NCBI RefSeq assembly: GCF_058153355.1
Contig: NZ_CM177019.1
Strand: one strand, 5' to 3'
Length of the DNA stretch: 64,000 nucleotides
Below, one piece after another: positions 22,600 through 59,322 of this stretch. Position 1 is the first letter of the stretch. Each line of letters starts with the position of its first letter. The notes beneath the pieces are model-generated. The model searched no databases, was not told where the DNA came from, and saw only the letters and a program-made list of their open reading frames with translations. A program made the translations under genes and the position numbers.

Positions 22600-22770
22600 G
22601 CCGGAAAAGCAGGCACCTGCCGTCTGAACGGTATCGATCCGGAAGCGTATCTGCGCCATATTCTGAGCATACTGCCGGAATGGCCCTCCAACCGTGTTGA
22701 CGAACTCCTGCCATGGAACGTAGTTCTCACCAATAAATAAGCGTCAATACGGTGCTCCGTTGACGCTGAT
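22600..22770 (+). mobile_element. IS66-family transposase 3' remnant and terminal repeat tip
   Basis: Encodes ...GIDPEAYLRHILSILPEWPSNRVDELLPWNVVLTNK*, matching the C-terminus of the intact IS66-family TnpC at 41197-42768; end sequence resembles the IS66 terminal repeat. Confidence 0.7.
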
Positions 22771-24280
22771 ATGACTTTCCGTGTCAAACCGGAATCTCTA
22801 ATTTTGACGATTTTCTTTTTAGGTTTAATTCCCTGAGGGCGACGTAGCAGTAAATCCGACGGTGAATCACGCTGATATTCGCGGGTTGGATACCGCATTA
22901 CAGAGGTCCGTCATATGAGCCTGCCACTTTCTTACGTCGCGAATCAGCTTTGTTCCGCCGTCGCCAAGCGCTAACGTGGGTTACTCTTGTACCGGGCTAC
23001 GTCGCCTTCAGGGAACTGGTTATTCTCATTTTTTATTTGTGACATTGTGGTTGTTGTGCGACAGACATTGCTATTCGGCCCATATCCCAGATAAAACCCG
23101 CCAGCTCACGTGCAACAGCAACAATTGTAATATTGACATTCTTTCCTTTGGCCTGAAGTTTTCGATACCTCTTACAAAGCCTGAGTTGAGCATCCCATGC
23201 TCTGTCAATGACGGGGCGGGGTAAATTTTCCTGCCTTTTTTGTATTGCCGGACTGATGCGTGCCGGATGACGGTAACTCCACGCTGCCTCGACCAATAGC
23301 TTTCTGGCATAGCTGTTTCCGGCTTTGGTAATGCTGCCCTGATGTCTGCTTCCACCCGATGAATATTCTGATGGCGTGATACCAAACCATGACATCAGTT
23401 GTCGTGGATGTTCAAAACGGGTCAGATCACCCAGTTCAGAAATTAATCCAACCGCAGTAATAAACTGAATCCCTCGCATGGCTTGCAGCGCCTCTACTAC
23501 CGGATACAGCCTCCATTCGGTAACGGCCTCCTTCAGGGCGGATTCCAGCCGTTCACATTGTGCCTGCCGGTCTTCTATTGTACGACGGTGTTCGTCAAAA
23601 GCTAATTGTCGCCAGGGACTTTCGAATGAGTATTTGCTGAGCCAGCGTCGGTGTGCAGGGCCCCAATCTGCTCGCCCGACATAATGGACCCCATGAACCA
23701 GAAGAAACGATTTCAGACGTTGCCTTGCATGCCGTAAATCATCGCGGGCAGATGCCCATGCCCGGGCCAAATCCCGGAATGCCTCATCTTCAATGCCGGG
23801 TACGTAGACAGCAGAAAGATCTCCTGCACGCAGTGAACGCACAAGTCTGATGGCATCACGGCGATCGGTTTTAACCCGCTCCCCCGGTTTTTTCGGGATA
23901 AGTGAGGGGGCGCAGACCATGCAGTCAAAACCGGATTTCACCAGCCGACGATAAAGTCCATAACCACAGGGCCCCGCTTCATAAACGATACTGACCTGCG
24001 ATGACTTTGACCTGAGACGTTTACAAAGATTCTGAATATCAGTAGGTGATGTGCCAATTTTACCCATCAGTTCAACAGGTTCTGAATTGATAGCATAAGC
24101 GACAGTAATCGATTCTTTGTGAACATCTAACCCGACGTACAATGTGTTATTGTTGTTCATGCTGGCCTCCGTGGTGGAAATACCGGGGTGTAGCAACAGC
24201 TCACCCATGCGGCTCTGACAACGATGTTAACCCGCGTTAAATATCCCACGTTGGCCAGCATCTGTCTCACGGAAAGTCAT
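22771..24280 (-). mobile_element. IS110-family insertion sequence, copy 1 (about 1,510 bp, 13-bp imperfect terminal inverted repeats ATGACTTTCCGTG)
   Basis: Identical to copy 2 at 54561-56070 in inverted orientation; ends atgactttccgtg (22771) and cacggaaagtcat (24268-24280). Confidence 0.85.
23033..24160 (-). CDS. IS110-family DEDD transposase/recombinase
   Basis: ORF 23033-24208; start set at MNNNNTLYVGLDVHK; N-terminal RuvC-like DEDD region (GLDVHK, YEAGPCGY, DRRDA) and C-terminal IS110 domain (ITKAGNSYARKLL). Confidence 0.88.
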   Translation of the reverse strand: MNNNNTLYVGLDVHKESITVAYAINSEPVELMGKIGTSPTDIQNLCKRLRSKSSQVSIVYEAGPCGYGLYRRLVKSGFDCMVCAPSLIPKKPGERVKTDRRDAIRLVRSLRAGDLSAVYVPGIEDEAFRDLARAWASARDDLRHARQRLKSFLLVHGVHYVGRADWGPAHRRWLSKYSFESPWRQLAFDEHRRTIEDRQAQCERLESALKEAVTEWRLYPVVEALQAMRGIQFITAVGLISELGDLTRFEHPRQLMSWFGITPSEYSSGGSRHQGSITKAGNSYARKLLVEAAWSYRHPARISPAIQKRQENLPRPVIDRAWDAQLRLCKRYRKLQAKGKNVNITIVAVARELAGFIWDMGRIAMSVAQQPQCHK

Positions 24281-24398
24281 ACTGCCTTACCTTTTCTCAG
24301 GCTATTTTTGCTTTTTTTTGCTTTTCCCCGCCACTTTATGGTGATTATCACATCAATATACATCGATAGATATTAACGTAACTGAAGTGAGGTGAAGC

Positions 24399-40833: not shown

Positions 40834-41177
40834 TATCTCTCCCTGCAGGTTCGCGTATCTGGCTGGTTGCAGGTATCACCGATATGCGAAATGGCTTTAA
40901 CGGCCTGGCCTCAAAAGTTCAGAACGTCCTGAAGGATGACCCGTTCTCCGGGCATCTGTTCATCTTCCGCGGACGCCGGGGTGACCAGATAAAAGTGTTG
41001 TGGGCTGACAGTGACGGACTGTGCCTCTTCACCAGACGCCTGGAGCGGGGCCGCTTCGTCTGGCCGGTCACCCGTGACGGCAAGGTGCACCTTACTCCGG
41101 CCCAGTTATCCATGCTTCTTGAGGGCATCGACTGGAAACACCCGAAACGAACGGAACGCGCTGGCATCCGCATATAA
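40830..41177 (+). CDS. IS66 family TnpB (Orf2)
   Basis: 115-aa ORF MISLPAGSRIWLVAGITDMRNGFNGL typical of IS66 Orf2. Confidence 0.88.
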   Translation: MISLPAGSRIWLVAGITDMRNGFNGLASKVQNVLKDDPFSGHLFIFRGRRGDQIKVLWADSDGLCLFTRRLERGRFVWPVTRDGKVHLTPAQLSMLLEGIDWKHPKRTERAGIRI

Positions 41178-41196
41178 CCCGTTGTAAAGTGAGGAT

Positions 41197-42768
41197 ATGG
41201 ACACCTCACTTGCTCATGAGAATGCCCGCCTGCGGGCACTGTTGCAGACGCAACAGGACACCATCCGCCAGATGGCGAAATACAACCGCCTGCTCTCACA
41301 GCGGGTGGCGGCTTATGCTTCCGAAATCAACCGGCTGAAGGCGCTGGTTGCAAAACTGCAGCGCATGCAGTTCGGTAAAAGCTCAGAAAAACTTCGTGCA
41401 AAAACCGAACGGCAGATACAGGAAGCACAGGAGCGAATCAGCGCTCTTCAGGAAGAAATGGCGGAAACGCTGGGTGAGCAATATGACCCGGTACTGCCAT
41501 CTCCCCTGCGCCAGTCTTCAGCCCGTAAACCGTTACCTGCCTCACTTCCCCGTGAAACCCGGGTCATCCGTCCGGAAGAGGAATGCTGCCCGGCCTGTGG
41601 TGGCGAACTCAGTTCTCTGGGATGTGATGTGTCAGAGCAACTGGAGCTTATCAGCAGCGCCTTTAAGGTTATCGAAACACAACGTCCGAAACTGGCCTGT
41701 TGCCGGTGCGACCATATCGTGCAGGCTCCGGTGCCTTCAAAACCCATTGCACGCAGTTATGCCGGAGCGGGGCTTCTGGCCCATGTTGTCGCTGGAAAAT
41801 ATGCAGACCATCTGCCGTTATACCGCCAGTCAGAAATATACCGTCGTCAGGGCGTGGAGCTGAGCCGTGCCACACTGGGGCGCTGGACAGGTGCTGTTGC
41901 TGAACTGCTGGAACCGCTGTATGACATCCTGCGCCAGTATGTGCTGATGCCCGGTAAAGTCCATGCCGATGATATCCCCGTTCCGGTCCAGGAGCCGGGC
42001 AGCGGTAAAACAAGGACTGCCCGGCTGTGGGTCTACGTTCGTGATGACCGTAACGCCGGTTCGGAAATGCCTCCGGCGGTCTGGTTCGCGTACAGCCCGG
42101 ACCGGAAAGGTATCCATCCACAGAATCATCTGGCCGGTTACAGCGGAGTGCTTCAGGCCGATGCTTACGGTGGTTACCGGGCGTTGTACGAATCCGGCAG
42201 AATAACGGAAGCCGCATGTATGGCTCATGCCCGGAGAAAAATCCACGATGTGCATGCAAGAGTGCCCACCGACATCACCACGGAAGCCCTGCAGCGTATC
42301 GGTGAACTGTATGCCATCGAGGCAGAGGTCCGGGGCTGTTCAGCAGAACAGCGTCTGGCGGCAAGAAAAGCCAGAGCCGCGCCACTGATGCAGTCACTGT
42401 ATGACTGGATACAGCAACAGATGAAAACACTGTCGCGTCACTCGGACACGGCAAAAGCGTTCGCATACCTGCTGAAACAGTGGGATGCACTGAACGTGTA
42501 CTGCAGTAATGGCTGGGTGGAAATCGACAACAACATCGCAGAGAACGCCTTACGGGGAGTGGCCGTAGGCCGGAAAAACTGGCTCTTCGCGGGTTCTGAC
42601 AGCGGTGGTGAACATGCTGCGGTGTTGTACTCGCTGATCGGCACATGCCGTCTGAACAATGTGGAGCCAGAAAAGTGGCTGCGTTACGTCATTGAACATA
42701 TCCAGGACTGGCCGGCAAACCGGGTACGCGATCTGTTGCCCTGGAAAGTTGATCTGAGCTCTCAGTAA
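41197..42768 (+). CDS. IS66 family transposase TnpC (Orf3)
   Basis: 523-aa ORF with leucine-zipper N-terminus, CxxC zinc motif, DDE domain, C-terminus ...[10 protein letters not shown]. Confidence 0.9.
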
Positions 42769-42967
42769 ATATCAATACGGTTCTGGCGAGCCGCTTACGT
42801 ACATCTTACAACAGAGACTGAATTTCCGGTTTTTCATAACCGGCGCATTCCGGAAAGTGCAGGCGGCCCGGAGGTTTTCTGACGCCACTACCTGGTAGAT
42901 TGTTCTGTACATCATGTACGGAGGTTTTTGTTTGCTTTTTTAAAATCTGCAAATGTGAGAAAAGCAG

Positions 42968-44131
42968 GTGAGGTGTATTGTGGGAAAGGAACTGGATGAT
43001 ATCTGCACCAGCTGTCCGTATATCGATGCTGTAAAACGGCACAAACAACAGCTCGGTGCCATAGAGGAATATACACAGTGGTTAAAAAAAGAACCACGGG
43101 CATCTTATTTTTTTCTGTTCCAGCTGTATACCCGCATTCACAATACATTTTTCTCCCAAAAGCAACAACTCCCGTTCACTCCCGGTGGCACTCACTGCCC
43201 GGAACCTGATGTCACCCTTCGGGACTTAACGCTTTCCCCTGGCTACCACAGTGATTATGCCCCTCAACCCATTCCGGAGATGGACAGTTCTGCTGTTGTT
43301 CCCCCAACTAATGAAAACACCTCGCCTCCGGAAGATACTCCCGACAACACTCCGGCCGGAGGCAATACCGGACAAGCGGAAAAGACCAGAAACGCAGGAC
43401 TCACACCCATTCCTGAAAAACGTTCAGGAATGCCCCCGGAACATCTGCGGTTTGCCACGGGGTTTCCATCGCAACCGAAGATTGCCGGTCCCAGAGAAAA
43501 GCCGATGCGCACCGTGCATCCGGATAAAATCTACCGTGAAATTATATGGTTCTGCTCCAGTTACCTGCTGAAATCCGGACCAGAGGCTACGAGGACGATT
43601 ATCAACTCAGTATTCTCTGAATGGGCCAGCATAAACAATGATTACCCCTCCCCCTTTTCGTGGGTGGACAGCAGGGACAGTGAACAGTGTGACTGGTTAT
43701 GGAACGCCATGCAGGTCCGGTGTGTGGGAACCCCGCTGAATCCCCTTACCCCGGAGCAGAAATACTGGTTTGCCTGCGCCACGTTTGATAACTGGGAGGG
43801 CTGGAATGAGCAACAGGTACAGTTTTTACTGGAAAGTAATCCCAGACGGAACAGAGCGAAGTTTACGCAGGTCTCCTTCCAGGCCCCCAGGATTCAGCAT
43901 AAAGCGATTCTTCTTGATGAGCTGAAAAGTGCCCGGGAGCAACAAAAAAGGCGTGATGAACGTGCTGATGGTTCCGTCCCTCTGAAACTGTCCGGAAAAA
44001 TCCACAAACAGCTTGAAAGTATTGCCCGAAGTCGTGGTGTCCTCCCAAAAAAACTGCTGAATGAAATGATTGAGCAGGCGTACCATGATTTGGTGGCAAC
44101 CAGGCAGAACTGCCAAATCGATTCCAGATAA
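42968..44131 (+). CDS. Hypothetical protein with Pro/Thr-rich linker and C-terminal ribbon-helix-helix-like segment
   Basis: 387-aa ORF; no ATG near the 5' end (GTG start at 42968 or 42980 assumed); low-complexity PPTNENTSPPEDTPDNTPAGG region. Confidence 0.5.
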   Translation: MRCIVGKELDDICTSCPYIDAVKRHKQQLGAIEEYTQWLKKEPRASYFFLFQLYTRIHNTFFSQKQQLPFTPGGTHCPEPDVTLRDLTLSPGYHSDYAPQPIPEMDSSAVVPPTNENTSPPEDTPDNTPAGGNTGQAEKTRNAGLTPIPEKRSGMPPEHLRFATGFPSQPKIAGPREKPMRTVHPDKIYREIIWFCSSYLLKSGPEATRTIINSVFSEWASINNDYPSPFSWVDSRDSEQCDWLWNAMQVRCVGTPLNPLTPEQKYWFACATFDNWEGWNEQQVQFLLESNPRRNRAKFTQVSFQAPRIQHKAILLDELKSAREQQKRRDERADGSVPLKLSGKIHKQLESIARSRGVLPKKLLNEMIEQAYHDLVATRQNCQIDSR

Positions 44132-44159
44132 TTTCAGACAGATATTATTTCCGTGAATC

Positions 44160-44198
44160 CCCCGCCACCTTTCCGGTGCGCGGGGTTTTGTCTTTTTT
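44160..44198 (+). terminator. Rho-independent terminator between the 387-aa ORF and the YeeP-like GTPase gene
   Basis: CCCGCCACC...GGTGCGCGGGG stem followed by GTTTTGTCTTTTTT. Confidence 0.6.
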
Positions 44199-44214
44199 CA
44201 CCGGGAATACATGT

Positions 44215-44874
44215 ATGAATCCGTCTGATGCCATTGAGGCAATTGAAAAACCGCTCTCCTCCCTGCCTTACTCACTTTCCCGTCACATCCTGGAACATCT
44301 GCGCAAACTCACCAGTCACGAACCCGTGCCTGGCATTATGGGTAAAAGCGGGGCCGGTAAATCCTCACTCTGTAATGCGCTGTTTCAGGGGGAGGTCACC
44401 CCGGTCAGTGATGTTCACGCCGGCACCCGGGAAGTGCAGCGCTTCCGTCTGAATGGCCATGGTCACAGCATGGTTATCACTGACCTGCCCGGGGTGGGCG
44501 AGAGCCGGGACAGGGATGCAGAGTATGAAGCCCTGTACCGTGACATTCTGCTCGAACTGGACCTGGTACTGTGGCTGATTAAAGCCGATGACCGTGCCCT
44601 GTCTGTGGATGAGTATTTCTGGCGACACATCCTGCACCGGGGACATCAGCGGGTACTGTTTGTGGTGATGCAGGCCGATAAAACGGAGCCCTGCCATGAA
44701 TGGGATATGGCCGGTATTCAGCCTTCTCCCGCAGAGGCACAGAACATTCGCGAAAAAACGGAGGCGGTATTCCGTCTGTTCCGGCCCGTACATCGGGTTG
44801 TTGCCGTATCGGCCCGCACCGGCTGGGAACTGAACCCGGTGGTGATGTACCAGGCTGTTGTTACAGATTTTTAA
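44215..44874 (+). CDS. Small GTPase of the YeeP/YfjP/YkfA island family
   Basis: Start MNPSDAIEAIE; P-loop GIMGKSGAGKSS, DLPG switch II, QADK-type G4; K-12 has yeeP at the equivalent island position. Confidence 0.8.
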   Translation: MNPSDAIEAIEKPLSSLPYSLSRHILEHLRKLTSHEPVPGIMGKSGAGKSSLCNALFQGEVTPVSDVHAGTREVQRFRLNGHGHSMVITDLPGVGESRDRDAEYEALYRDILLELDLVLWLIKADDRALSVDEYFWRHILHRGHQRVLFVVMQADKTEPCHEWDMAGIQPSPAEAQNIREKTEAVFRLFRPVHRVVAVSARTGWELNPVVMYQAVVTDF

Positions 44875-45050
44875 CTCCATGAAAACACTATGCAAACGCA
44901 GCCATACCCGGGTTGTCCCCTTGCGTTGTGTTTCTCAAGTTAATAGAATACATCAATCGTTACTATCATATCGATCGTTATAAACAATCGTTTGTAGTAA
45001 ATGACCTCCTCCGTGGTTGTCATGAAAATGCGTCTTAGGAAGGTTAAATA

Positions 45051-47447
45051 ATGCACGAAAAGAACATCGCCCTGCTTTGTGATGAAGCCGACCGACTTTT
45101 GCAACTGAACATTAATCTGCTCCGGCAAATGGTTGAGGAGCCAGATGTGTTATCTGACAGTAAGAACGAAAACAGACTGCTTTTTGATAAACAGAAAGCA
45201 CTGAAAAGAATTGAGGAGCTGGAGGGCGAACAAATCAAAACCGCCCGCAGGGAGATGGTGCTGGCTGTTGTCGGCACGATGAAAGCAGGCAAATCAACCA
45301 CCATCAACGCCATTGTGGGGCAGGAAATTCTGCCTAACCGTAACCGCCCCATGACCTCTGTACCGACGCTCATCCGCCACGTTCCCGGAAAAACTGAGCC
45401 GGTTCTCCATCTGGAACATATTCAGCCTGTCCGCAATTTATTAATCACACTGCAGGAAAAACTCGCCACCCCGGCAGGACAGCAGGTCGCACAGACCCTG
45501 CAGCAAACCGGGGATACCCGCGAACTGCTGGATATTCTGACGGATGATGGCTGGCTCAAAAATGAATACCACGGGGAGGAGGAAATCTTTACCGGACTGG
45601 CATCGTTAAACGATCTGGTTCGTCTTGCTGCGGCAATGGGGACTGAATTTCCTTTTGATGAATACGCAGAAGTGCAGAAACTGCCGGTGATCGACGTGGA
45701 ATTCAGCCATCTGGTGGGGATGGATGCATGCCAGGGAACACTCACACTGCTGGATACCCCCGGCCCTAATGAGGCCGGACAACCGCAGATGGAAGTGATG
45801 ATGCGGGATCAACTGCAGAAAGCCTCTGCGGTTCTGGCTGTGATGGATTACACCCAGATGAACTCAAAAGCGGATGAAGACGTCCGTAAAGAGCTTAATG
45901 CCATTGCTGACGTATCAGCCGGCCGCCTGTTTGTACTGGTCAATAAATTTGATGAGAAAGACCGCAATGGCGATGGGGCAGATGCCGTACGCCAGAAAGT
46001 TCCGGCAATGCTGAACAGCGATGTGCTGCCCGCCTCCCGCGTTTATCCCGGATCCTCACGCCAGGCATACCTGGCTAACCGTGCGCTTCATGAGTTACGG
46101 AAAAACGGAACCCTTCCTGTTGATGAAGCCTGGGTCGATGATTTTATCAGAGGTGCCTTCGGTTGCATGAAAAAAGAATACGTCTGTAAAGACAGTGAAC
46201 TGGCAACTGAAGGGGCGACAGACCTGTGGGAAGGCTCACTTATCGATCAACTGATAACGGAAGTCATACAGAGCTCACATTCCAGAGCTGCGGCACTGGC
46301 GGTTGACTCTGCCGCCGCAAAACTGATGCAGAATGCAGAAAATATCAGTGAATACCTGTTGTTACGCCATCAGGGGCTACAGCAAAGCATTCAGTCACTG
46401 CAGTCGCATATCACCAGCCTGCTTGCGGATATCCGGGAAATCGCGGACTGTCAGGAGCAGATGACCACTGATGTCAGAATGGCCATGGAGGAGATCGATA
46501 CTAAAACCCGGGAATTACTGACGGGGGTCTGCACCTCACTGGAAGAGGAGCTGAATGACTATTTCAGAAGCGGTAAACGCAAAGAACAGCAAATGCTGGA
46601 GGAAGAAGACGCAGAACAACGAAGGTCTCAGTCCGGATTATGGGGGAAAATTTCTCAATGGTCCGGTATCAACAACCAGGGCCGGGAGGATTACAGGAAA
46701 CGAGATTTTGCCCCGGACAGCCCCGAAATAAAATTCAGTGATCGCAGGGAAGCCCTTGAACTGATGACGCAAATCGAATCGACCGTGACCAGCCTGCACC
46801 GTGAGGCTGAAGCACAGTTCCGGCCTGAGCTGGAGAAAATCGTCAGCGGGATTGAAACAGGTTTTCGTGGCACGGCCCTGTACGCCACAGAAAACATTGC
46901 CGGTCGCATCAATGCCCGCCTGGAGGATGAGGGCTTTACCGTAAAAATCAGTTTTCCGGCAGTCAGCCAGTTACAGACCCGGCTCGCGGTAAAAATAAAT
47001 CTGAGTGCGCTTATGGAGGAAAGAACGGAGACCGTCACCCGTCGCCGTCGGCAGAGTGGCGTATGGGGAACCGTTTGTCGATGGTTTGGCACCAGTGACC
47101 TGGGCTGGGAAAACTATGACGAGGATGTGAGTCGCAGCGTGATCAATATCAACAAGGTCAGAGAGGAAGTTATGTCACTGACCCGGGCATATTTCGGGGA
47201 GCTGCAGGCATCCATTGAGCAGGATATTAACCAGCCCGTCCGCCAGGAAATCGATGCCTTTTTCTGCGCATTCAGGGAGAAAGTTGAACAACTGCGTAAC
47301 ACGCTGATTCAGAGCTCTGAAGATCATAAACGCGATCAGCAGGCGCAGGAACGGCTTACCGGGCGACTTCAGGCATTAAATGAAAGGGTTCCTGAGCTCA
47401 TTACTGACAGTAAGGCGCTGAGGGAAGAGCTGGAGACAATGCTGTGA
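45051..47447 (+). CDS. Bacterial dynamin-like large GTPase
   Basis: 798-aa ORF; GTPase motifs G1 GTMKAGKST, G3 DTPG, G4 NKFD in the N-terminal third; long helical, coiled-coil-rich C-terminal region; AGGAAGG RBS. Confidence 0.8.
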   Translation: MHEKNIALLCDEADRLLQLNINLLRQMVEEPDVLSDSKNENRLLFDKQKALKRIEELEGEQIKTARREMVLAVVGTMKAGKSTTINAIVGQEILPNRNRPMTSVPTLIRHVPGKTEPVLHLEHIQPVRNLLITLQEKLATPAGQQVAQTLQQTGDTRELLDILTDDGWLKNEYHGEEEIFTGLASLNDLVRLAAAMGTEFPFDEYAEVQKLPVIDVEFSHLVGMDACQGTLTLLDTPGPNEAGQPQMEVMMRDQLQKASAVLAVMDYTQMNSKADEDVRKELNAIADVSAGRLFVLVNKFDEKDRNGDGADAVRQKVPAMLNSDVLPASRVYPGSSRQAYLANRALHELRKNGTLPVDEAWVDDFIRGAFGCMKKEYVCKDSELATEGATDLWEGSLIDQLITEVIQSSHSRAAALAVDSAAAKLMQNAENISEYLLLRHQGLQQSIQSLQSHITSLLADIREIADCQEQMTTDVRMAMEEIDTKTRELLTGVCTSLEEELNDYFRSGKRKEQQMLEEEDAEQRRSQSGLWGKISQWSGINNQGREDYRKRDFAPDSPEIKFSDRREALELMTQIESTVTSLHREAEAQFRPELEKIVSGIETGFRGTALYATENIAGRINARLEDEGFTVKISFPAVSQLQTRLAVKINLSALMEERTETVTRRRRQSGVWGTVCRWFGTSDLGWENYDEDVSRSVININKVREEVMSLTRAYFGELQASIEQDINQPVRQEIDAFFCAFREKVEQLRNTLIQSSEDHKRDQQAQERLTGRLQALNERVPELITDSKALREELETML

Positions 47448-48349
47448 CTTCACCATTTATTCAACAAATTGCTGATAACCGGGTATGTCAGGTACTCACC
47501 TGTCTTCCTGAAAAATTTGTGGTTGATTTCGCAAACGGAATCGATGTTGCACAGGAGCATATCCGCACGGCCGGAGAGAGCACGTTCTTCCGGCGTTTAA
47601 AAGAGGGGCTGACCGGCGAAGGCGCTGCACGGCAGAATGCCATCAATGCGTCGCTTGCACAGGGCGTTGAGGCGTCCCTGCGCTGGCTGACGGAGATGAC
47701 AACGTCACTTGCCACCACAAACTACGCGATTACCCGGGTAAACGACAGGGTCAGTTCACTGGTCAGTGATACAGCCAGGCTGGCGCATTATTCCGCAGAT
47801 ACGCGGGAGCAGTTACTCACCCTGGCCGATCAGGTTCACCATAAACTGAATCATCTTGAAGAAAAACTCCACCGTGTTGACCAGGTTCAGCGGGCGCAGT
47901 TACATCTTGAGCAGATATTCTCATGGTGGAGCGCCGGGCGATATGCGTCATTTTCCCCTGCCGGACGTTGTTATGTGGCACTTGAAGAGCTTCGCTGGGG
48001 CGCGTTTGGTGATGTGATACGTCAGAGCGAAACAGGCCAGGTTAACCAGCTACTGGATATTCTCAGACATAAAGCATTAACGCAGATGGCACAGGAGAGT
48101 GGCGGTAGTGCAACCGTGCGTCTGAACACTCTGGACTGGCTTGGTGGTCAGGGCCGGGAGCAGGCAGATAACGAGTGGCATGACGCGATTAACTGGCTGG
48201 GAGACTGGTGCAGTGAAGAGCAGCATCCGGTGATCTGGTCAACCACGCAGGCTGCAGAACACTTACCGGTTCGCATGCCTCGCCTCTGCTCTGCAGAACG
48301 CCTCTCTGAAAGTATGGTCGATGAAATATTTCAGAAGGGGGCTGCATGA
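47444..48349 (+). CDS. Helical partner protein of the dynamin-like GTPase (no nucleotide-binding motif)
   Basis: 301-aa ORF; start overlaps upstream stop (ATGA) and its stop overlaps the downstream start. Confidence 0.7.
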   Translation: MTSPFIQQIADNRVCQVLTCLPEKFVVDFANGIDVAQEHIRTAGESTFFRRLKEGLTGEGAARQNAINASLAQGVEASLRWLTEMTTSLATTNYAITRVNDRVSSLVSDTARLAHYSADTREQLLTLADQVHHKLNHLEEKLHRVDQVQRAQLHLEQIFSWWSAGRYASFSPAGRCYVALEELRWGAFGDVIRQSETGQVNQLLDILRHKALTQMAQESGGSATVRLNTLDWLGGQGREQADNEWHDAINWLGDWCSEEQHPVIWSTTQAAEHLPVRMPRLCSAERLSESMVDEIFQKGAA

Positions 48350-49416
48350 GTACAGAAATGAAAACGGGGCTGGTGCTGTCCGGTGGCGGGGCGGTGGGCG
48401 CTTATCAGGCGGGAGTGGTTAAGGCACTGGCAGAGTGTGGTACACAGATCAGCATGGTTTCAGGGGCCAGCATTGGCGCATTCAATGGTGCCATTATCGC
48501 GGCCTCTCCCGATCTGTCAGAAGCTGCCGTACGCCTGGAGGCGCTCTGGGATCATCTGGGGAATAATCAGGTGCTGTCGGTAAACAGATTGGTTTACTTT
48601 TCATTGCTGAAAAAATTGTTCCAGGCAATGAACCTCTGCCAGATCCCCGGACGTGCAGGAGCACTGCTTACGACGCTTCTTCGCCATATATCGACAATCA
48701 ACGGGTTTGACAATCTGATGGCTCAGCCGTTGTTGTCAGATGAGCCCCTGACAGCGCTGATGGATCATTATCTTGATACTGATGCTCTGGCAGACGGGCT
48801 ACCGCTGTATGTGTCGCTGTACCCCACAGAAGGGGGCATGCAGGATATTATTGACTGCATTCGTGCTGAACTGGGTGTCGGAACCACGAAAAACGCCGTT
48901 TTTCAGCATATCCAGAGCCTGCCCCGCGGACAGCAGAAAGAGGCTCTGCTTGCGTCAGCCGCGCTGCCCCTGCTGTTCCGTCCCCGTGAGGTTCAGGGGA
49001 CAATGTTCGGTGATGGTGGTATGGGAGGATGGCGAAATATGCAGGGAAATACCCCTGTGACGCCTCTGGTCGATGCCGGATGCAATATGGTGATTGTGAC
49101 GCATCTGAGTGACGGTTCTTTATGGGATCGCCAGGCTTTTCCGGACACCACAATCCTTGAGATCCGTCCCCGGAAAAGGCTGAAATATGCAGGTGATGGT
49201 GGCAACAGCGGCGGTCTGCTCAGTTTTACATCGGCACATACCGACGCCTGGCGTCAGCAGGGCTATGAAGACACGATGCTGGCGATGGAGCATATCCGGA
49301 AACCGCTGGCAGCACGTCAGGCACTGACCCGGTCAGAGGCGGTATTGCAGAAAAGCCTGGATATAACGGAAGAGGCAGATTTGGCACTGAGAAACGCGAT
49401 GGCCCGGATTAAATAA
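48346..49416 (+). CDS. Patatin-like phospholipase
   Basis: 356-aa ORF with oxyanion-hole motif SGGGAVG, nucleophile elbow GASIG (GxSxG) and catalytic DGG (FGDGGMGG). Confidence 0.85.
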   Translation: MSTEMKTGLVLSGGGAVGAYQAGVVKALAECGTQISMVSGASIGAFNGAIIAASPDLSEAAVRLEALWDHLGNNQVLSVNRLVYFSLLKKLFQAMNLCQIPGRAGALLTTLLRHISTINGFDNLMAQPLLSDEPLTALMDHYLDTDALADGLPLYVSLYPTEGGMQDIIDCIRAELGVGTTKNAVFQHIQSLPRGQQKEALLASAALPLLFRPREVQGTMFGDGGMGGWRNMQGNTPVTPLVDAGCNMVIVTHLSDGSLWDRQAFPDTTILEIRPRKRLKYAGDGGNSGGLLSFTSAHTDAWRQQGYEDTMLAMEHIRKPLAARQALTRSEAVLQKSLDITEEADLALRNAMARIK

Positions 49417-49746
49417 AGACGCCCCAAAGAAACGCCACCGCCTGTGGTGGTGTTTTTCCTGTCTGGTGTTATTGAAAATATTTTCATATATATATTACCT
49501 GAGAGAAAGTTTTACCCCTCACCTGTCAATTCACTCACTGGAAATTTAATTATGAAATTACCTGTAAAGTTATTAATGAGCCTTATATCTCTGGTCAGCG
49601 TTATTGCACGTGCCGGGGAATATAAAAATTACAGCCGGGATGAAATAAAATACTGGCGATATACATCATACAAGGGGGGGAAACTTCCGGAAGGTTTCAC
49701 TGATGAGAAATTTTCCAGCGCCATTTACAACGGAAGAATATTTACA

Positions 49747-50235
49747 ATGAAACGTTTACATACCCTTATGTTATTTCTGGCGGTTCTGTTCACGGGCTTT
49801 AACTTTAACGCAGAAGCGGCTACCGTAAAACAAGCTCTTAGTTGTAACCCGGAAGCCTGGGCTGAACAACCTGGAGCGTGTCCATCAACGTACGAGTTGT
49901 ACGAAGGTGACGCTACCTACAAAGCCGCTATCGACAAAGCATTAAAACCGGTCGGACTGAGCGGCATGTTCGGTAAAGGCGGCTATATGGATGGCCCTGG
50001 TGGAGGTATCACGCCAGTAAACATTAACGGTACAGTCTGGTTCCAGGGCGACGGTTGCAAAGCCAATACCTGCGGCTGGGACTTTATCGTAACACTCTAT
50101 AACCCAAAAACCCATGAAGTTGTTGGCTACCGTTACTTTGGTTTAGATGACCCGGCCTACCTGGTTTGGTTCGGTGAAATTGGCGTGCATGAATTCGCGT
50201 ATCTGGTGAAAAACTACGTAGCTGCGGTTAACTAA
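49747..50235 (+). CDS. Secreted protein, possibly Ivy-like (inhibitor of vertebrate lysozyme fold)
   Basis: Signal peptide MKRLHTLMLFLAVLFTGFNFNAEA; loop GDGCKANTCGWDFIV resembles the Ivy CKPHDCG motif; same frame is open upstream to an ATG at 49552 with a second signal-like segment, so the start is uncertain. Confidence 0.5.
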   Translation: MKRLHTLMLFLAVLFTGFNFNAEAATVKQALSCNPEAWAEQPGACPSTYELYEGDATYKAAIDKALKPVGLSGMFGKGGYMDGPGGGITPVNINGTVWFQGDGCKANTCGWDFIVTLYNPKTHEVVGYRYFGLDDPAYLVWFGEIGVHEFAYLVKNYVAAVN

Positions 50236-50250
50236 TTTAAGGAGTCTATC

Positions 50251-50661
50251 ATGAAAACTTTTATCAAAACTTTACTCGTTGCTGTAACTATTCTGTTCTC
50301 TGTCTTCGCTACTGCGAAACAAGTAAAACTGCCAAATAACATCAAATACGTTAATACTACAGAAGCGTTTTCCTGTACCGAAATTGACGGTATGAATTGC
50401 CAGACAAAGAATCAGTTCAACTATAAAGATAACAGCTATGTTTTCGTGCTTGAACGTGGTGGTGCCTGGTGCTACGACTACACTGTCTCGGTAGTTAACC
50501 TGAAAACCGGGAAAGCACAAATGATTGAATACGGGGACAATCAACTGTGCTCAGGTAGCAACAAACCGTTCTTCGAAATCAAAAATGGCGTACCGACGGT
50601 AGGAGTCATCGACACATCCGGAAAACCTGTCGTTGTAGCCCAGGACAAACTTAAAATCTAA
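50251..50661 (+). CDS. Small secreted protein with four cysteines
   Basis: 136-aa ORF with signal peptide MKTFIKTLLVAVTILFSVFATA; AAGGAG RBS. Confidence 0.6.
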   Translation: MKTFIKTLLVAVTILFSVFATAKQVKLPNNIKYVNTTEAFSCTEIDGMNCQTKNQFNYKDNSYVFVLERGGAWCYDYTVSVVNLKTGKAQMIEYGDNQLCSGSNKPFFEIKNGVPTVGVIDTSGKPVVVAQDKLKI

Positions 50662-50804
50662 GGAGTAAACCATGCGTTTCTCTGCACATTATTAATATCA
50701 AAGGTAAATACAGCCCCAGCCATTGTTACCGGAAAGCCGCTTAATGCGTGGCTCGCCAGTGAAAGGCCTCTCAGACAATAAACCTTATTCATTTCACCCG
50801 TCAG

Positions 50805-50836
50805 GCCGCGTCTTCTCCGGGAGACGCGGCTTTTTT
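50805..50836 (+). terminator. Rho-independent terminator closing the dynamin/patatin/secreted-protein block
   Basis: GCCGCGTCT tctccgg GAGACGCGGC followed by T6. Confidence 0.75.
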
Positions 50837-50881
50837 CATTTATTGCACCAGTAAATCTTAACCACCGATAAGGAGCAAAGT

Positions 50882-51703
50882 ATGCGATTAGCAAGTCGTT
50901 TTGGTTATGCTGCAAACCAGATACGCCGTGACCGTCCGCTGACACATGAAGAACTGATACGCCATGTACCCAGTATTTTTGGGGAAGACCGGCACACCTC
51001 CCGCAGTGAACGGTATGCGTACATTCCCACCATTACCGTCCTGGAAAATCTGCAGCGGGAAGGCTTTCAGCCGTTCTTCGCCTGCCAGACCCGTGTGCGC
51101 GACCCGGGCCGCCGGGGATACACAAAACACATGCTGCGTCTGCGGCGGGCCGGAGAGATAAACGGAGAACATGTCCCTGAAATTATTCTGCTCAACTCTC
51201 ATGACGGTACCTCCAGCTACCAGATGCTGCCGGGTTACTTCAGGTTCGTCTGCCAGAACGGGTGCGTCTGTGGCCAGTCTCTGGGGGAAGTGCGTGTTCC
51301 ACACCGGGGAAATGTAGTGGAGAAAGTTATCGAAGGGGCTTACGAGGTGGTGGGCGTGTTTGACCGGATAGAGGAGAAGCGTGATGCCATGCAGTCGCTG
51401 GTCCTGCCGCCACCGGCACGCCAGGCGCTGGCACAGGCGGCACTGACTTACCGTTATGGTGACGAACATCAGCCCGTCACCACCGCCGACATTCTGACGC
51501 CGCGACGCCGGGAGGATTACGGTAAGGACCTGTGGAGCGCATATCAGACCATCCAGGAGAATATGCTGAAAGGCGGGATTTCCGGTCGCAGTGCAAAAGG
51601 AAAACGTATCCATACCCGGGCCATTCACAGCATTGATACCGACATTAAGCTCAATCGCGCATTGTGGGTGATGGCAGAAACGATGCTGGAGAGCCTGCGC
51701 TGA
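50882..51703 (+). CDS. DUF932-family island protein (YfjQ-like)
   Basis: 273-aa ORF MRLASRFG...EIILLNSHDGTSSYQMLPG; recognised as the conserved CP4-type island family. Confidence 0.75.
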   Translation: MRLASRFGYAANQIRRDRPLTHEELIRHVPSIFGEDRHTSRSERYAYIPTITVLENLQREGFQPFFACQTRVRDPGRRGYTKHMLRLRRAGEINGEHVPEIILLNSHDGTSSYQMLPGYFRFVCQNGCVCGQSLGEVRVPHRGNVVEKVIEGAYEVVGVFDRIEEKRDAMQSLVLPPPARQALAQAALTYRYGDEHQPVTTADILTPRRREDYGKDLWSAYQTIQENMLKGGISGRSAKGKRIHTRAIHSIDTDIKLNRALWVMAETMLESLR

Positions 51704-51784
51704 TGCCGTTTCCCTGAGTGAGGGAATCATTCAGCTTTCGTTCCTGAAAAACACACATTTATTTGTTATTTAAGGAGTTATCTC

Positions 51785-52264
51785 ATGAAAACCGTTTCTC
51801 AGAATACCCCCACAATTTATTCAGCTACAACACCAGAGAATAATCCGCCTCAGTTGGTTGCCAGCCTCGTCCCTGATGAACAGCGCATCAGCTTCTGGCC
51901 GCAGCATTTTGGCCTCATTCCACAGTGGGTGACCCTGGAGCCCCGTGTCTTCGGCTGGATGGACCGTCTGTGCGAAGACTACTGCGGTGGTATCTGGAAT
52001 CTGTACACCCTGAACAACGGCGGGGCATTTATGGCACCCGAACCGGATGACGATGATGACGAAACATGGGTACTGTTCAATGCCATGAACGGTAACCGCG
52101 CAGAAATGAGCCCGGAAGCCGCCGGTATTGCCGCCTGTCTGATGACGTACAGTCATCATGCCTGTCGTACGGAGAATTATGCCATGACGGTCCATTATTA
52201 CCGGTTGCGGGATTACGCCCTGCAGCATCCGGAATGCAGCGCCATTATGCGCATCATCGACTGA
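51785..52264 (+). CDS. Antirestriction protein (KlcA/ArdB-like, YfjX family)
   Basis: 159-aa ORF with acidic DDDDDE stretch and the WPQHFG...CEDYCGG pattern of island antirestriction proteins. Confidence 0.75.
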   Translation: MKTVSQNTPTIYSATTPENNPPQLVASLVPDEQRISFWPQHFGLIPQWVTLEPRVFGWMDRLCEDYCGGIWNLYTLNNGGAFMAPEPDDDDDETWVLFNAMNGNRAEMSPEAAGIAACLMTYSHHACRTENYAMTVHYYRLRDYALQHPECSAIMRIID

Positions 52265-52279
52265 ATGGAGAGAAGCACA

Positions 52280-52756
52280 ATGCAACAACTTTCCTTTCTG
52301 CCCGGAGAGATGACGCCCGGCGAGCGCAGCCTCATTCAACGGGCCCTGAAAACCCTGGACCGCCATCTTCATGAACCCGGCGTGGCCTTCACCTCCACCC
52401 GTGCAGCACGGGAATGGCTGATTCTGAACATGGCGGGACTGGAGCGTGAAGAATTCCGGGTGCTGTATCTGAACAACCAGAATCAGCTGATTGCCGGTGA
52501 AACCCTCTTCACCGGCACCATCAACCGCACGGAAGTCCATCCCCGGGAAGTGATTAAACGCGCCCTGTACCACAATGCCGCTGCCGTGGTACTGGCACAC
52601 AATCACCCGTCCGGTGAAGTCACACCCAGTAAGGCAGACCGGCTTATCACCGAACGTCTGGTACAGGCACTGGGCCTGGTGGATATCCGGGTGCCGGACC
52701 ATCTGATAGTCGGTGGCAACCAGGTTTTCTCCTTTGCCGAACATGGTCTGCTTTAA
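52280..52756 (+). CDS. yeeS: RadC-like JAB-domain protein
   Basis: Start MQQLSFLPGEM; JAMM-like motif HNHPSGEVTPSKAD. Confidence 0.85.
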   Translation: MQQLSFLPGEMTPGERSLIQRALKTLDRHLHEPGVAFTSTRAAREWLILNMAGLEREEFRVLYLNNQNQLIAGETLFTGTINRTEVHPREVIKRALYHNAAAVVLAHNHPSGEVTPSKADRLITERLVQALGLVDIRVPDHLIVGGNQVFSFAEHGLL

Positions 52757-52818
52757 CCCTTCACAACCACATCACACCTGTTTTCACTTTTATCTTCTGT
52801 CTTCAGAGGTATCCCATT

Positions 52819-53040
52819 ATGAAAATTATCACCCGTGGTGAAGCCATGCGTATTCACCAACAACATCCGACATCCCGTCTTTTTCCGTTCTGTACCGGTA
52901 AATACCGCTGGCACGGCAGTGCTGAAGCGTATACCGGTCGTGAAGTGCAGGATATTCCCGGTGTGCTGGCCGTGTTTGCTGAACGCCGTAAGGACAGTTT
53001 TGGTCCGTATGTCCGGCTGATGAGCGTCACCCTGAACTGA
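52819..53040 (+). CDS. yeeT: DUF987 protein YeeT
   Basis: 73-aa ORF MKIITRGEAMRIHQQHP...; conserved position before cbeA. Confidence 0.85.
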   Translation: MKIITRGEAMRIHQQHPTSRLFPFCTGKYRWHGSAEAYTGREVQDIPGVLAVFAERRKDSFGPYVRLMSVTLN

Positions 53041-53113
53041 GTGGGAATTCTGATGAGCAGAATTATCGCCACTACCGGACCATTCTTAGCCGATTTTCTG
53101 TAAGGATTTTATC

Positions 53114-53482
53114 GTGTCAGACACACTCCCCGGGACAACACTTCCCGACGACAATCACGACCGCCCCTGGTGGGGGCTGCCCTGCACCGTGACGCCCTGT
53201 TTCGGGGCACGTCTGGTGCAGGAGGGTAACCGGTTGCATTACCTTGCCGACCGCGCCGGTATCAGAGGCCTGTTCAGCGATGCAGATGCGTACCACCTGG
53301 ACCAGGCCTTTCCGCTGCTGATGAAACAACTGGAACTCATGCTCACCAGCGGTGAACTGAATCCCCGCCATCAGCATACCGTCACGCTGTATGCAAAAGG
53401 GCTGACCTGCAAAGCCGATACCCTCAGCAGTTGTGGTTACGTTTATCTGGCTGTTTATCCGACGCCCGAAATGAAAAATTAA
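53114..53482 (+). CDS. cbeA: Type IV antitoxin CbeA (YeeU)
   Basis: 122-aa ORF matching CbeA/YeeU. Confidence 0.88.
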   Translation: MSDTLPGTTLPDDNHDRPWWGLPCTVTPCFGARLVQEGNRLHYLADRAGIRGLFSDADAYHLDQAFPLLMKQLELMLTSGELNPRHQHTVTLYAKGLTCKADTLSSCGYVYLAVYPTPEMKN

Positions 53483-53570
53483 CTCTCCAGAATAGCCTTC
53501 TGCTACGGCCTGGTGTTTTCACCACGCCACTTTTCCATTTTTATATCTGCATATCAGGAAAATCTTCAGT

Positions 53571-53944
53571 ATGAAAACATTACCTGTATTACCCGGGCAG
53601 GCGGCCAGTTCTCGCCCGTCTCCTGTTGAAATCTGGCAGATACTGCTGTCCCGACTGCTGGACCAGCACTATGGCCTCACACTGAATGACACACCTTTTG
53701 CCGATGAACGTGTGATTGAGCAGCATATTGAGGCAGGCATTTCACTGTGTGATGCGGTGAACTTTCTCGTGGAAAAATACGCGCTGGTGCTACCGACCAG
53801 CCGGGATTCAGCGCCTGTACCCGCTCTCAGTTAATAAACAGCATCGATATCCTCCGGGCTCGCAGGGCGACCGGCCTGATGACCCGCGACAATTACAGAA
53901 CGGTAAATAACATTACCCTGGGTAAGTATCCGGAGGCGAAATGA
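53571..53944 (+). pseudogene. cbtA: Type IV toxin CbtA (YeeV), frameshifted
   Basis: ORF stops at 53834 after 87 aa; N-terminus matches CbtA and the C-terminal third continues in another frame to TGA at 53942-53944. Confidence 0.7.
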
Positions 53945-54135
53945 TGACACTGGAAGCCGACAGCGTTAACGTACAGGCGCTGGATATGGGGCACATTGTC
54001 GTTGACATTGATGGTGTTAATATCACTGAACTGATTAATAAGGCCGCTGAAAACGGTTATTCACTCCGCGTGGTGGATGACCGTGACTCTACCGAAACAC
54101 CGGCAACTTATGCCAGCCCTCACCAGTTGCTGTAA
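53941..54135 (+). CDS. yeeW: CP4-44-type island protein YeeW
   Basis: 64-aa ORF MMTLEADSVNVQALDMGHIVVDIDG; overlaps cbtA stop. Confidence 0.8.
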   Translation: MMTLEADSVNVQALDMGHIVVDIDGVNITELINKAAENGYSLRVVDDRDSTETPATYASPHQLL

Positions 54136-54490
54136 GACAATGCAGTGATGCAGGGTATAGTGCCATTAACCACAGAAACAGCACTGTTGTCCTGTATTAA
54201 GCAGGCAAGAGAAGATGTCCTTACCCTGCGCCATCTGCAGCTTCTGCACCAGAACCGGTGAATCTCACTCAACAGGCTTCATTTCCCCTGACGCCAGCCT
54301 GAATACAGCTGGCGTTTTCATTTATAAACAGAAAGGAAAACCGATAATAATGGAATGGACGCCCCGACCATGAAGCAACGGTAGGATATTACTGATAAAC
54401 CTTCCAGTGGAGGTGCGTTATGGCCGTTTTAACGATTAGCATTGACCTGACAAAAAATGAATTCCAAATCCACGGTCTGGGTAGGAACAG

Positions 54491-54552
54491 AAAAATCTAA
54501 GCTCAGAAAACGGATTAAAGTAAAAATCTAAGCTCAGAAAACGGATTAAAGT
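54491..54552 (+). repeat. Perfect 31-bp tandem duplication (2 copies) abutting the left end of IS110-family copy 2
   Basis: aaaaatctaagctcagaaaacggattaaagt at 54491-54521 and again at 54522-54552. Confidence 0.9.
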
Positions 54553-54560
54553 AAGGCAGT

Positions 54561-56070
54561 ATGACTTTCCGTGAGACAGATGCTGGCCAACGTGGGATAT
54601 TTAACGCGGGTTAACATCGTTGTCAGAGCCGCATGGGTGAGCTGTTGCTACACCCCGGTATTTCCACCACGGAGGCCAGCATGAACAACAATAACACATT
54701 GTACGTCGGGTTAGATGTTCACAAAGAATCGATTACTGTCGCTTATGCTATCAATTCAGAACCTGTTGAACTGATGGGTAAAATTGGCACATCACCTACT
54801 GATATTCAGAATCTTTGTAAACGTCTCAGGTCAAAGTCATCGCAGGTCAGTATCGTTTATGAAGCGGGGCCCTGTGGTTATGGACTTTATCGTCGGCTGG
54901 TGAAATCCGGTTTTGACTGCATGGTCTGCGCCCCCTCACTTATCCCGAAAAAACCGGGGGAGCGGGTTAAAACCGATCGCCGTGATGCCATCAGACTTGT
55001 GCGTTCACTGCGTGCAGGAGATCTTTCTGCTGTCTACGTACCCGGCATTGAAGATGAGGCATTCCGGGATTTGGCCCGGGCATGGGCATCTGCCCGCGAT
55101 GATTTACGGCATGCAAGGCAACGTCTGAAATCGTTTCTTCTGGTTCATGGGGTCCATTATGTCGGGCGAGCAGATTGGGGCCCTGCACACCGACGCTGGC
55201 TCAGCAAATACTCATTCGAAAGTCCCTGGCGACAATTAGCTTTTGACGAACACCGTCGTACAATAGAAGACCGGCAGGCACAATGTGAACGGCTGGAATC
55301 CGCCCTGAAGGAGGCCGTTACCGAATGGAGGCTGTATCCGGTAGTAGAGGCGCTGCAAGCCATGCGAGGGATTCAGTTTATTACTGCGGTTGGATTAATT
55401 TCTGAACTGGGTGATCTGACCCGTTTTGAACATCCACGACAACTGATGTCATGGTTTGGTATCACGCCATCAGAATATTCATCGGGTGGAAGCAGACATC
55501 AGGGCAGCATTACCAAAGCCGGAAACAGCTATGCCAGAAAGCTATTGGTCGAGGCAGCGTGGAGTTACCGTCATCCGGCACGCATCAGTCCGGCAATACA
55601 AAAAAGGCAGGAAAATTTACCCCGCCCCGTCATTGACAGAGCATGGGATGCTCAACTCAGGCTTTGTAAGAGGTATCGAAAACTTCAGGCCAAAGGAAAG
55701 AATGTCAATATTACAATTGTTGCTGTTGCACGTGAGCTGGCGGGTTTTATCTGGGATATGGGCCGAATAGCAATGTCTGTCGCACAACAACCACAATGTC
55801 ACAAATAAAAAATGAGAATAACCAGTTCCCTGAAGGCGACGTAGCCCGGTACAAGAGTAACCCACGTTAGCGCTTGGCGACGGCGGAACAAAGCTGATTC
55901 GCGACGTAAGAAAGTGGCAGGCTCATATGACGGACCTCTGTAATGCGGTATCCAACCCGCGAATATCAGCGTGATTCACCGTCGGATTTACTGCTACGTC
56001 GCCCTCAGGGAATTAAACCTAAAAAGAAAATCGTCAAAATTAGAGATTCCGGTTTGACACGGAAAGTCAT
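54561..56070 (+). mobile_element. IS110-family insertion sequence, copy 2 (inverted relative to copy 1)
   Basis: Ends atgactttccgtg (54561) and cacggaaagtcat (to 56070); internal sequence identical to copy 1 over all inspected ORFs. Confidence 0.85.
54681..55808 (+). CDS. IS110-family DEDD transposase/recombinase
   Basis: Same 375-aa protein as copy 1; GGAGG RBS at 54671. Confidence 0.88.
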   Translation: MNNNNTLYVGLDVHKESITVAYAINSEPVELMGKIGTSPTDIQNLCKRLRSKSSQVSIVYEAGPCGYGLYRRLVKSGFDCMVCAPSLIPKKPGERVKTDRRDAIRLVRSLRAGDLSAVYVPGIEDEAFRDLARAWASARDDLRHARQRLKSFLLVHGVHYVGRADWGPAHRRWLSKYSFESPWRQLAFDEHRRTIEDRQAQCERLESALKEAVTEWRLYPVVEALQAMRGIQFITAVGLISELGDLTRFEHPRQLMSWFGITPSEYSSGGSRHQGSITKAGNSYARKLLVEAAWSYRHPARISPAIQKRQENLPRPVIDRAWDAQLRLCKRYRKLQAKGKNVNITIVAVARELAGFIWDMGRIAMSVAQQPQCHK

Positions 56071-56740
56071 ATCAGCGTTAATGGAGAATCATATTGATGC
56101 TTATTTATTGGTGAGAACTACGTTCCATGGCAGGAGTTCATCAATACGGTTGGAAGGTTATTCCGGCAGTACGCTCAGGATATGGCGCAGATACGCTTCC
56201 GGATCAATGTCGTTCAGAAGGCAAGTGCCGATAAGCCCATACAACAGTGCACTGCGCTCGCCGCCGAAGAACATAAAGTTTTTATTTCCGAGACAGATGG
56301 CACAAAGGGCTTTTTCCGCGGCATTATGTCTGCCTCCGCCTGACCGTCAACACTGTAATAACAGAGTGCGCCCCACTGATTCAGTACACAGCTGAACCAT
56401 TCTCCCAGTCTGGATTTTTGGATAGCGTGGCATTTTTCTCCACCATGCATGCAGTGAGTCCAGTAACAGTTTGCTCTTCTTCTGCCTGACCACAAGATGT
56501 GCTGGACTGGTAAACGATGGGGATACCTGCTTACGCGAGAGCAATAAGTGGCTGGCCACAATTCTCGGTACAAAACTCTGCTGAATAGCAGCGATTTTCC
56601 CAGCGTGGTGCGTCGTTTGCATTTTACTGGTTCTAAGTTAACAATTATCTGTTCACTAATGACTACTCTAAAAACTTGTATCAGGACTATCACTTATTTA
56701 AGTGATATTGGTTGTCTGGAGATTCAGGGGGCCAGTCTAT
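56071..56740 (-). mobile_element. Composite IS remnant: IS66-like tnpC 3' fragment plus IS2-like terminal fragment
   Basis: 56071-56400 encodes an IS66 TnpC C-terminal tail on the minus strand, about 85-90% identical to the remnant at 22600-22770; 56650-56740 is an IS2-type terminal repeat (GGGGGCCAGTCTA). Confidence 0.65.
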
Positions 56741-58558: not shown

Positions 58559-59322
58559 GTAAATTATTTTGGGCGATGCTCTCATTTATTACGCGTCTGC
58601 CTGTACCGCGTCGCTGGTCCCAGGGACTGGATTTCGAGCATTATTCTCGCGGTATTATTACTTTTCCTTTAATTGGATTATTGCTTGGCGCGATTAGCGG
58701 GCTGGTCTTCATGGTGCTGCAGGCATGGTGTGGCGTACCACTGGCGGCACTGTTTAGCGTACTTGTGCTGGCGCTGATGACCGGGGGATTCCACCTGGAC
58801 GGCCTCGCCGATACCTGTGATGGCGTATTTTCTGCACGTAGCCGCGATCGCATGTTGGAAATCATGCGTGATAGCCGTTTAGGCACCCATGGCGGTCTGG
58901 CATTGATTTTTGTTGTACTGGCAAAGATTCTGGTATTAAGCGAGTTGGCTCTGCGTGGCGAACCGATCCTTGCATCGCTGGCGGCAGCATGTGCGGTCAG
59001 CCGCGGGACTGCCGCATTATTGATGTATCGTCATCGTTATGCGCGGGAAGAAGGGCTTGGCAATGTGTTCATTGGCAAAATTGATGGGCGACAAACCTGC
59101 GTCACACTCGGCTTAGCCGCTATTTTTGCTGCCGTATTATTGCCGGGTATGCATGGTGTGGCTGCTATGGTGGTGACGATGGTGGCGATTTTCATCCTCG
59201 GTCAGCTTCTCAAACGTACGCTGGGCGGGCAAACCGGCGATACGCTGGGAGCTGCTATAGAGCTTGGTGAACTGGTCTTCCTGCTGGCACTGCTATCTGG
59301 CACTGCTATAAAGAGACGTGAC
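58555..59322 (+). CDS. cobS: Cobalamin synthase; no stop codon, reads through in frame into cobT
   Basis: [17 protein letters not shown]...; ORF tool reports one 627-aa ORF 58519-60402; 13-bp direct repeat CTGGCACTGCTAT at 59284-59296 and 59297-59309 sits where the stop is expected. Confidence 0.8.

Follow-up and report, generated by a model that had tools for sequence, protein, structure and literature searches.

The DNA analyzed here, a stretch of 64,000 nucleotides (the window), carries a perfect 31-bp tandem duplication directly beside the left end of a copy of the insertion sequence ISSso6. The duplication is real and common to a small lineage, not an assembly artefact, and it is confined to one small E. 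coli (Shigella-like / EIEC-like) lineage. We regard it as probably being a recent, neutral and lineage-restricted tandem duplication of the slippage type. Two parts of this explanation we infer: that the repeat arose by slippage, and that it lies next to the IS end incidentally.

The repeat was first pointed out in an earlier note, made from the sequence alone, which described a perfect 31-bp tandem duplication at 54491-54552. This was confirmed both by Tandem Repeats Finder, which gives a tract at 54491-54554 with a period of 31, 2.1 copies, 100% matches and a score of 128, and by an exact count of the 31-mer AAAAATCTAAGCTCAGAAAACGGATTAAAGT, which has two occurrences in the window and none in 100 shuffles. 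The two units stand head to tail, are perfect copies and have zero intervening bases, as is expected of a slippage-type duplication. The periodicity runs two nucleotides (AA) past the second unit, which leaves the phase of the duplication ambiguous by 0–2 nt. Since the tract is 2 × 31 + 2 nt, there is a microhomology of two nucleotides (AA) at the boundaries of the duplication, of the kind which slippage uses, the signal being weak in such an A-rich sequence. The earlier note placed the end of the second unit 8 bp before the start of the inverted repeat of the element. The adjacency holds, but the spacing is 7 nt (AAGGCAG, 54553-54559) with the inverted repeat starting at 54560; this inverted repeat is subterminal, and comparisons with empty sites place the true IS boundary at 54554-54556. 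The periodic tract stops 0–3 nt from this boundary. It was also correct that copy 1 of the element, which lies on the minus strand, is without the repeat; its flank shows none. The coordinates of the features discussed are collected in Table 1.

Table 1. Positions of the tandem repeat, of ISSso6 and of the neighbouring element remnants (positions in the window, except in the last row).
Feature	Position	Strand	Basis or remark
Tandem unit 1, AAAAATCTAAGCTCAGAAAACGGATTAAAGT	54491..54521	+	Extra copy compared with all comparators
Tandem unit 2 and the 2 nt (AA) continuing the periodicity	54522..54554	+	Unit 2 itself 54522-54552
N-terminal stub of an old IS110-family transposase pseudogene (not ISSso6)	54420..54550	+	Alignment and RefSeq annotation in SCEC020023
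GTAAG, forming the left half of the target of ISSso6; outer tip of a terminal inverted repeat left from an IS66-family element	54551..54555	+	GTAAGCGTCAACGG in K-12-like genomes; GTAAGCGTTAATGG at VL7S7 empty site B
ISSso6 copy 2, 1520 bp	54556..56075	+	Empty versus occupied sites; RefSeq 'IS110-like element ISSso6 family transposase'
Left subterminal inverted repeat TATGACTTTCCGTG, 14 bp	54560..54573	+	Partner at 56058-56071
ISSso6 transposase gene, 375 aa	54681..55808	+	Pfam DEDD_Tnp_IS110 (PF01548) E=2.4e-11; Transposase_20 (PF02371) E=8.1e-24
ISSso6 non-coding region, 267 bp, presumed to encode a seekRNA	55809..56075	+	Position according to the IS1111-family rule (PMC11187229)
Right subterminal repeat CACGGAAAGTCATA	56058..56071	+	In the downstream non-coding region of ISSso6
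Rest of the IS66-family right-end remnant: split inverted repeat (CGTTAATGG...) and transposase 3' end	56076..56496	-	Pfam, VL7S7 annotation
ISSso6 copy 1, sequence identical to copy 2	22766..24285	-	In a second IS66-type tip, GTAAG at 24286-24290
ISSso6 right-end duplications	L001 4553-4771 (FDAARGOS_943); L032 2895-3100; L033 2895-3056		Positions within fetched loci

The repeat is located in the debris of several mobile elements. Upstream of it cbeA, a frameshifted cbtA and yeeW form the end of a CP4-44-like island. The cbtA gene (53571-53834) has a 1-bp deletion at 53791 compared to FDAARGOS_943, which results in a truncated toxin of 87 aa; this truncated CbtA protein is very widespread, with an exact match in 11,870 index blocks. 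Next follows the stub of the old IS110-family gene, which opens with an ATG at 54420 and has both 31-bp units inside it. At 26 aa the stub is too short for Pfam. In SCEC020023 a longer pseudogene is found, annotated by RefSeq as 'IS110 family transposase, frameshifted; internal stop', which in the alignment reads on as ...GGATTAAA followed by CGTTCC. In K-12-like genomes the pseudogene is cut after GGATTAAA by an uninterrupted GTAAGCGTCAACGG, after which comes the 3' end of a transposase gene on the opposite strand. The GTAAG between the repeat and ISSso6 thus belongs neither to the IS nor to the ordinary flank, being the tip of an IS66-type inverted repeat which ISSso6 has split. The last two bases of the unit (GT) are part of this tip, and the duplication must therefore be younger than the IS66-type insertion. 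On the other side of ISSso6 the remnant of the IS66-family element continues with a 38-aa open reading frame (56158-56274) which matches Pfam DDE_Tnp_IS66_C with 33.7 bits, and the VL7S7 annotation has a partial 'IS66 family transposase' here. The locus illustrates how nested IS debris builds up, from the IS110-family stub over the IS66 tip to ISSso6.

ISSso6 agrees with the description of the IS1111 family (PMC11187229): its DEDD transposase has an IS110-type C-terminal domain, its inverted repeats are subterminal, and the transposase gene is followed by a long non-coding region. The 14-bp subterminal repeats and the downstream non-coding region are shared with IS1111-family elements including ISEc11, and so is the oriented, duplication-free insertion into the conserved terminal repeat of another mobile element (PMC11187229). 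The terminal extensions total 8 nt (e.g. 5+3) in ISSso6, as compared to the usual 7+3 or 6+3 in the family (PMC11187229). The non-coding region is presumed, from its position, to encode a seekRNA; when ISSso6 was compared with Rfam no seekRNA or bridge RNA matched, and the guide-like strings GTAAG and ATATCAGCGT in the non-coding region were spotted by eye only. Two empty sites could be compared with occupied ones, site A in K-12-like genomes and site B in VL7S7. Both read GTA-AG^CGT and no bases had been added at insertion, in agreement with the general finding that IS1111-family insertion adds no bases (PMC11187229). At 12 sites in genomes and 8 sites on metagenome contigs the left flank ends with (G/A)TAAG and the right flank starts with CG(T/C), and several of the ISSso6 copies directly precede intact IS66-family elements. 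Taken over the 2 empty and ~20 occupied sites, the insertion is oriented, goes into one specific target and takes place without added bases, as in the IS1111 family. ISSso6 thus consistently inserts into the conserved tip of IS66-family inverted repeats. Because both junctions carry the AG core, the boundaries of the element can be shifted left by up to 2 nt. In the papers searched ISSso6 was mentioned incidentally only, with no description of a preference for IS66 tips, and the left end of ISSso6 had no match in the GTDB representative genomes.

A separate observation concerns the right end of ISSso6. In 3 of ~13 copies a segment of the right-end non-coding region is tandemly duplicated, with lengths of 106, 205 and 161 bp. 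Each of these duplications begins right after an internal AG (ATATCAG/CGT, GTTAG/CGCT and GAAAG/TGG, the slash marking the start), in guide-like sequence, which suggests either self-targeting of the DNA encoding the seekRNA or slippage between target mimics. They are reminiscent of ISPpu9, an IS110-family element with modular circles, whose small-RNA module, situated downstream of the transposase gene, is also found on its own (PMC12288879). There it is the element's own non-coding module that is concerned, and not flank DNA as in the 31-bp repeat.

A single unit is found at the locus in ~4,077 of 5,426 complete E. coli genomes (seen as matches 31 nt shorter than the query), and it was verified base by base in 12 fetched loci. 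ISSso6 occupies the identical site, next to a single unit, in FDAARGOS_943, VL40, VL7S7 and an NCTC assembly. A 48-nt probe matching the unit-unit junction only had no match in the 5,426 complete E. coli genomes, in the GTDB representatives or in the metagenome contigs; the window's own genome is absent from the complete assemblies searched. One unit is also present in the closest relative, VL7S7, which is 100% identical in the first 8 kb and differs by 3 SNPs in 24 kb. The comparison of the same junction in related strains, which was proposed along with the original observation, shows a single unit in all comparators, including the four genomes with ISSso6 in place. Judged from these alignments the single unit is the ancestral state and the duplication is derived. 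Since VL7S7 carries ISSso6 at the same site with one unit, the IS came first and the duplication later. By parsimony the order of events would be the IS110-family gene, the IS66-type insertion, the ISSso6 insertion and finally the 31-bp duplication.

The segment between the two ISSso6 copies has its own history. This 30-kb part of the island (24294-54547) is inverted compared to VL7S7, FDAARGOS_943 and two NCTC assemblies. The inversion recombined through the two inverted ISSso6 copies and swapped their flanks, so that the right flank of site A now follows copy 1 and the right flank of site B follows copy 2. In VL7S7 site B is without ISSso6. The other members of the lineage that were found are short-read contigs which break at the IS.

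It was important to consider whether the repeat could have been created by assembly or finishing, either as an unmerged 31-base k-mer overlap or as a gap-filling error at a repeat boundary. Several features could point in this direction: 31 is often chosen as k-mer size, the two copies of the repeat match perfectly and lie at the edge of a repeated sequence, and public complete assemblies offered no second look at the window's own genome, which was missing among those searched. We used read-derived Logan contigs (k=31), which were retrieved via strain-specific protein alleles from the window. Contig 158 of SRR31441161 is 100% identical to the window from 42771 to 54520 and ends with ...GGATTAAAG, i.e., at position 30 of the unit. 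Contig 323 of SRR8656992 has 3 SNPs compared to the window and the same length and end. In a simulation of a k=31 de Bruijn graph the flank unitig ends at 54520 when the duplication is present; when one unit is deleted it runs 30 nt further into GTAAGGCAGTATGAC... A control contig from the same run, covering the left junction of copy 1, reads 29 nt into the IS. The contigs end as simulated with the duplication and the control differs from them, and it follows that the junction k-mers are present in the reads of two runs. Absence of the duplication from raw reads had been named in the earlier note as one outcome which would count against it; the two independent read sets show the junction signature, and the repeat came out as real. 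An artefact is thus very unlikely: the contigs of two runs stop where the cycle of period 31 dictates, whereas the control IS junction behaves as a simple repeat edge. Moreover, the duplicated bases are unique flank, and an unmerged de Bruijn overlap would have given the first k-1 bases of the repeated sequence. Finally, the window contains several resolved IS copies, which indicates a long-read or finished assembly.

Spontaneous short tandem duplications arise by slipped-strand mispairing or by RecA-independent template misalignment. The 31-bp repeat resembles this class: it is perfect and head to tail, is tens of bp long, has minimal microhomology at its ends, derives from a single-copy ancestor and is located in a neutral place. 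It is unlike the general class in lying 0–3 nt from an IS boundary. The type of event, a short tandem duplication by slippage, is already well known. We propose that a primer-template misalignment (replication slippage or some other RecA-independent illegitimate event) took place across the AA microhomology, at the junction between the dead IS110-family gene stub and the tip of the IS66-family inverted repeat, and after ISSso6 had inserted next door. Such an event would push the older flank DNA 31 bp further away and leave the nearest 31 bp and the GTAAG half of the target unchanged. Three options had been offered for the origin of the repeat, recombination or excision at the element end, a duplicated regulatory site and replication slippage. 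With perfect copies, relatives with a single unit and the AA microhomology the last of these gives the best fit, the mechanism itself being deduced from these traits. The microhomology, two nucleotides in an A-rich sequence, speaks weakly for slippage. A second perfect tandem duplication private to this strain (CTGGCACTGCTAT twice, 13 bp, 59284-59309) is located over 3 kb away from the nearest end of ISSso6, which belongs to copy 2. It lies at the end of cobS, where it removes the stop codon and gives an in-frame CobS-CobT fusion of 615 aa. This 13-bp duplication was in none of the 5,426 E. coli genomes searched and is present in a Logan contig of SRR31441161, i.e., it is supported by reads. 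Because it lies far from an IS, it demonstrates that small tandem duplications arise in this lineage without an IS end. As it stands the 31-bp repeat is a neutral strain marker with a possible use in typing of one small EIEC-like lineage.

The close fit between the end of the repeat and the end of the element invites another explanation, which is the main rival and which we consider less likely: that activity at the boundary between the ISSso6 left end and its flank left the duplication behind as a scar. A nick or a replication start at the boundary would expose a flank 3' end, ...AAAGTAA, the AA of which could re-pair 31 nt upstream and be extended again, with the outcome that the last 31 bases of the flank would be copied twice before synthesis entered the IS. 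The source might be nicking by the transposase, abortive or replicative circle formation, or a recombination intermediate stalled at the edge of homology during the 30-kb inversion. The periodicity stops within 0–2 nt of the IS boundary (54554 against 54554-54556); a random hit within a few nucleotides of one of the ~14 IS termini in the 64 kb would have a chance below ~1%, by a rough estimate which allows for the concentration of neutral DNA. ISSso6 was already in place when the duplication arose, and the lineage carries an inversion whose recombinant junction is this same IS copy. The duplication and the 30-kb inversion are both derived states of one lineage, which hints at a shared cause. 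Tandem duplications after internal AG sites at the right end of 3 of ~13 ISSso6 copies can also be counted in favor of the scar. Circle formation by ISEc11 takes place without detectable regeneration of the empty site (PMC11187229), which leaves room for nicking or replication steps at IS ends.

Against a scar it counts that the duplication was found once only: the flanks of ~20 other ISSso6 insertions (in genomes and metagenome contigs) showed none, and neither did the same site in four other genomes. The crossover is in AA and thereby off the AG core, no mechanism has been published for flank duplications in the family of ISSso6, and the right-end duplications are internal to the element and have a different anatomy. 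The earlier note held the juxtaposition unlikely to be coincidental; the meeting of repeat and IS boundary is indeed striking, yet it is one unreplicated event. Were the scar interpretation true, the repeat would be the first sequence footprint suggesting that a primer terminus is exposed in vivo at the donor junction of an IS1111-type RNA-guided element, and it would bear on whether circles of IS1111-family elements are formed by nicking and replication or by clean conservative excision.

Two more specific ways in which an element could have made the repeat were tried and rejected. Exchange at the AG core between sister copies, with the AG at 54489-90 recombining with the AG of the junction, predicts a 34-bp unit ending in AAG; the unit actually found is 31 bp long and joined in AA. 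DDE transposons make target-site duplications, which are 8 bp in the IS66 family. The 31-bp repeat is like these in being a short direct repeat beside the end of a mobile element; it is unlike them in that both copies are on one side, that its length of 31 bp is wrong and that the right flank of ISSso6, which begins CGTTAATGG..., holds no matching copy. The suggestion that the repeat is a footprint of excision or site-specific recombination is left without support: FDAARGOS_943, VL40, VL7S7 and the NCTC assembly have ISSso6 with a single unit, the ~20 other junctions are clean, insertion in this family adds no bases (PMC11187229), and the unit has 31 and not 34 bp.

Whether the repeat does anything for the cell or for the IS was also considered. 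It is located in a dead pseudogene, and 31 is not a multiple of three. A scan for promoters and terminators found nothing sigma-70-like or terminator-like within the repeat or spanning it, and the region as a whole had as many sites as shuffles lead one to expect. In folding, the region was not significantly structured compared to shuffles (z = -1.1). There is no sign of a function of the 31-bp repeat. A duplicated regulatory site, as had been suggested, does not agree with the lack of a promoter, a terminator or a significant fold there, the 31 bp next to the IS being unchanged. One can still imagine a selected regulatory change, in which the duplication formed a new promoter or a site for protein binding that reads into ISSso6, or offered the element a second pseudo-target. 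The repeat is indeed situated ~130-190 bp upstream of the transposase start, and integrated IS1111 elements lack a complete internal promoter (PMC11187229). With zero sigma-70-like sites in or across it, the fold at z = -1.1, the 31 bp beside the IS the same after the event as before it, and an internal junction, AAAGTAAAAATC, without the GTAAG^CG target found at all insertion sites, we find such a change very unlikely.

Two further differences and repeats in the window deserve mention. At 40330-42798 there is a 2.47-kb insertion with open reading frames of 142, 115 and 523 aa, a putative IS66-family layout and an 8-bp target duplication. It is absent from VL7S7 and common to both Logan runs, the contigs of which start 28 nt inside it. 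At 24305-24325, 15-35 bp from the left end of copy 1, a 10-bp near-tandem repeat (AAAAGCAAAA twice) is found. The same repeat is present at the empty site B of VL7S7, and it is therefore ancestral and unrelated to ISSso6.
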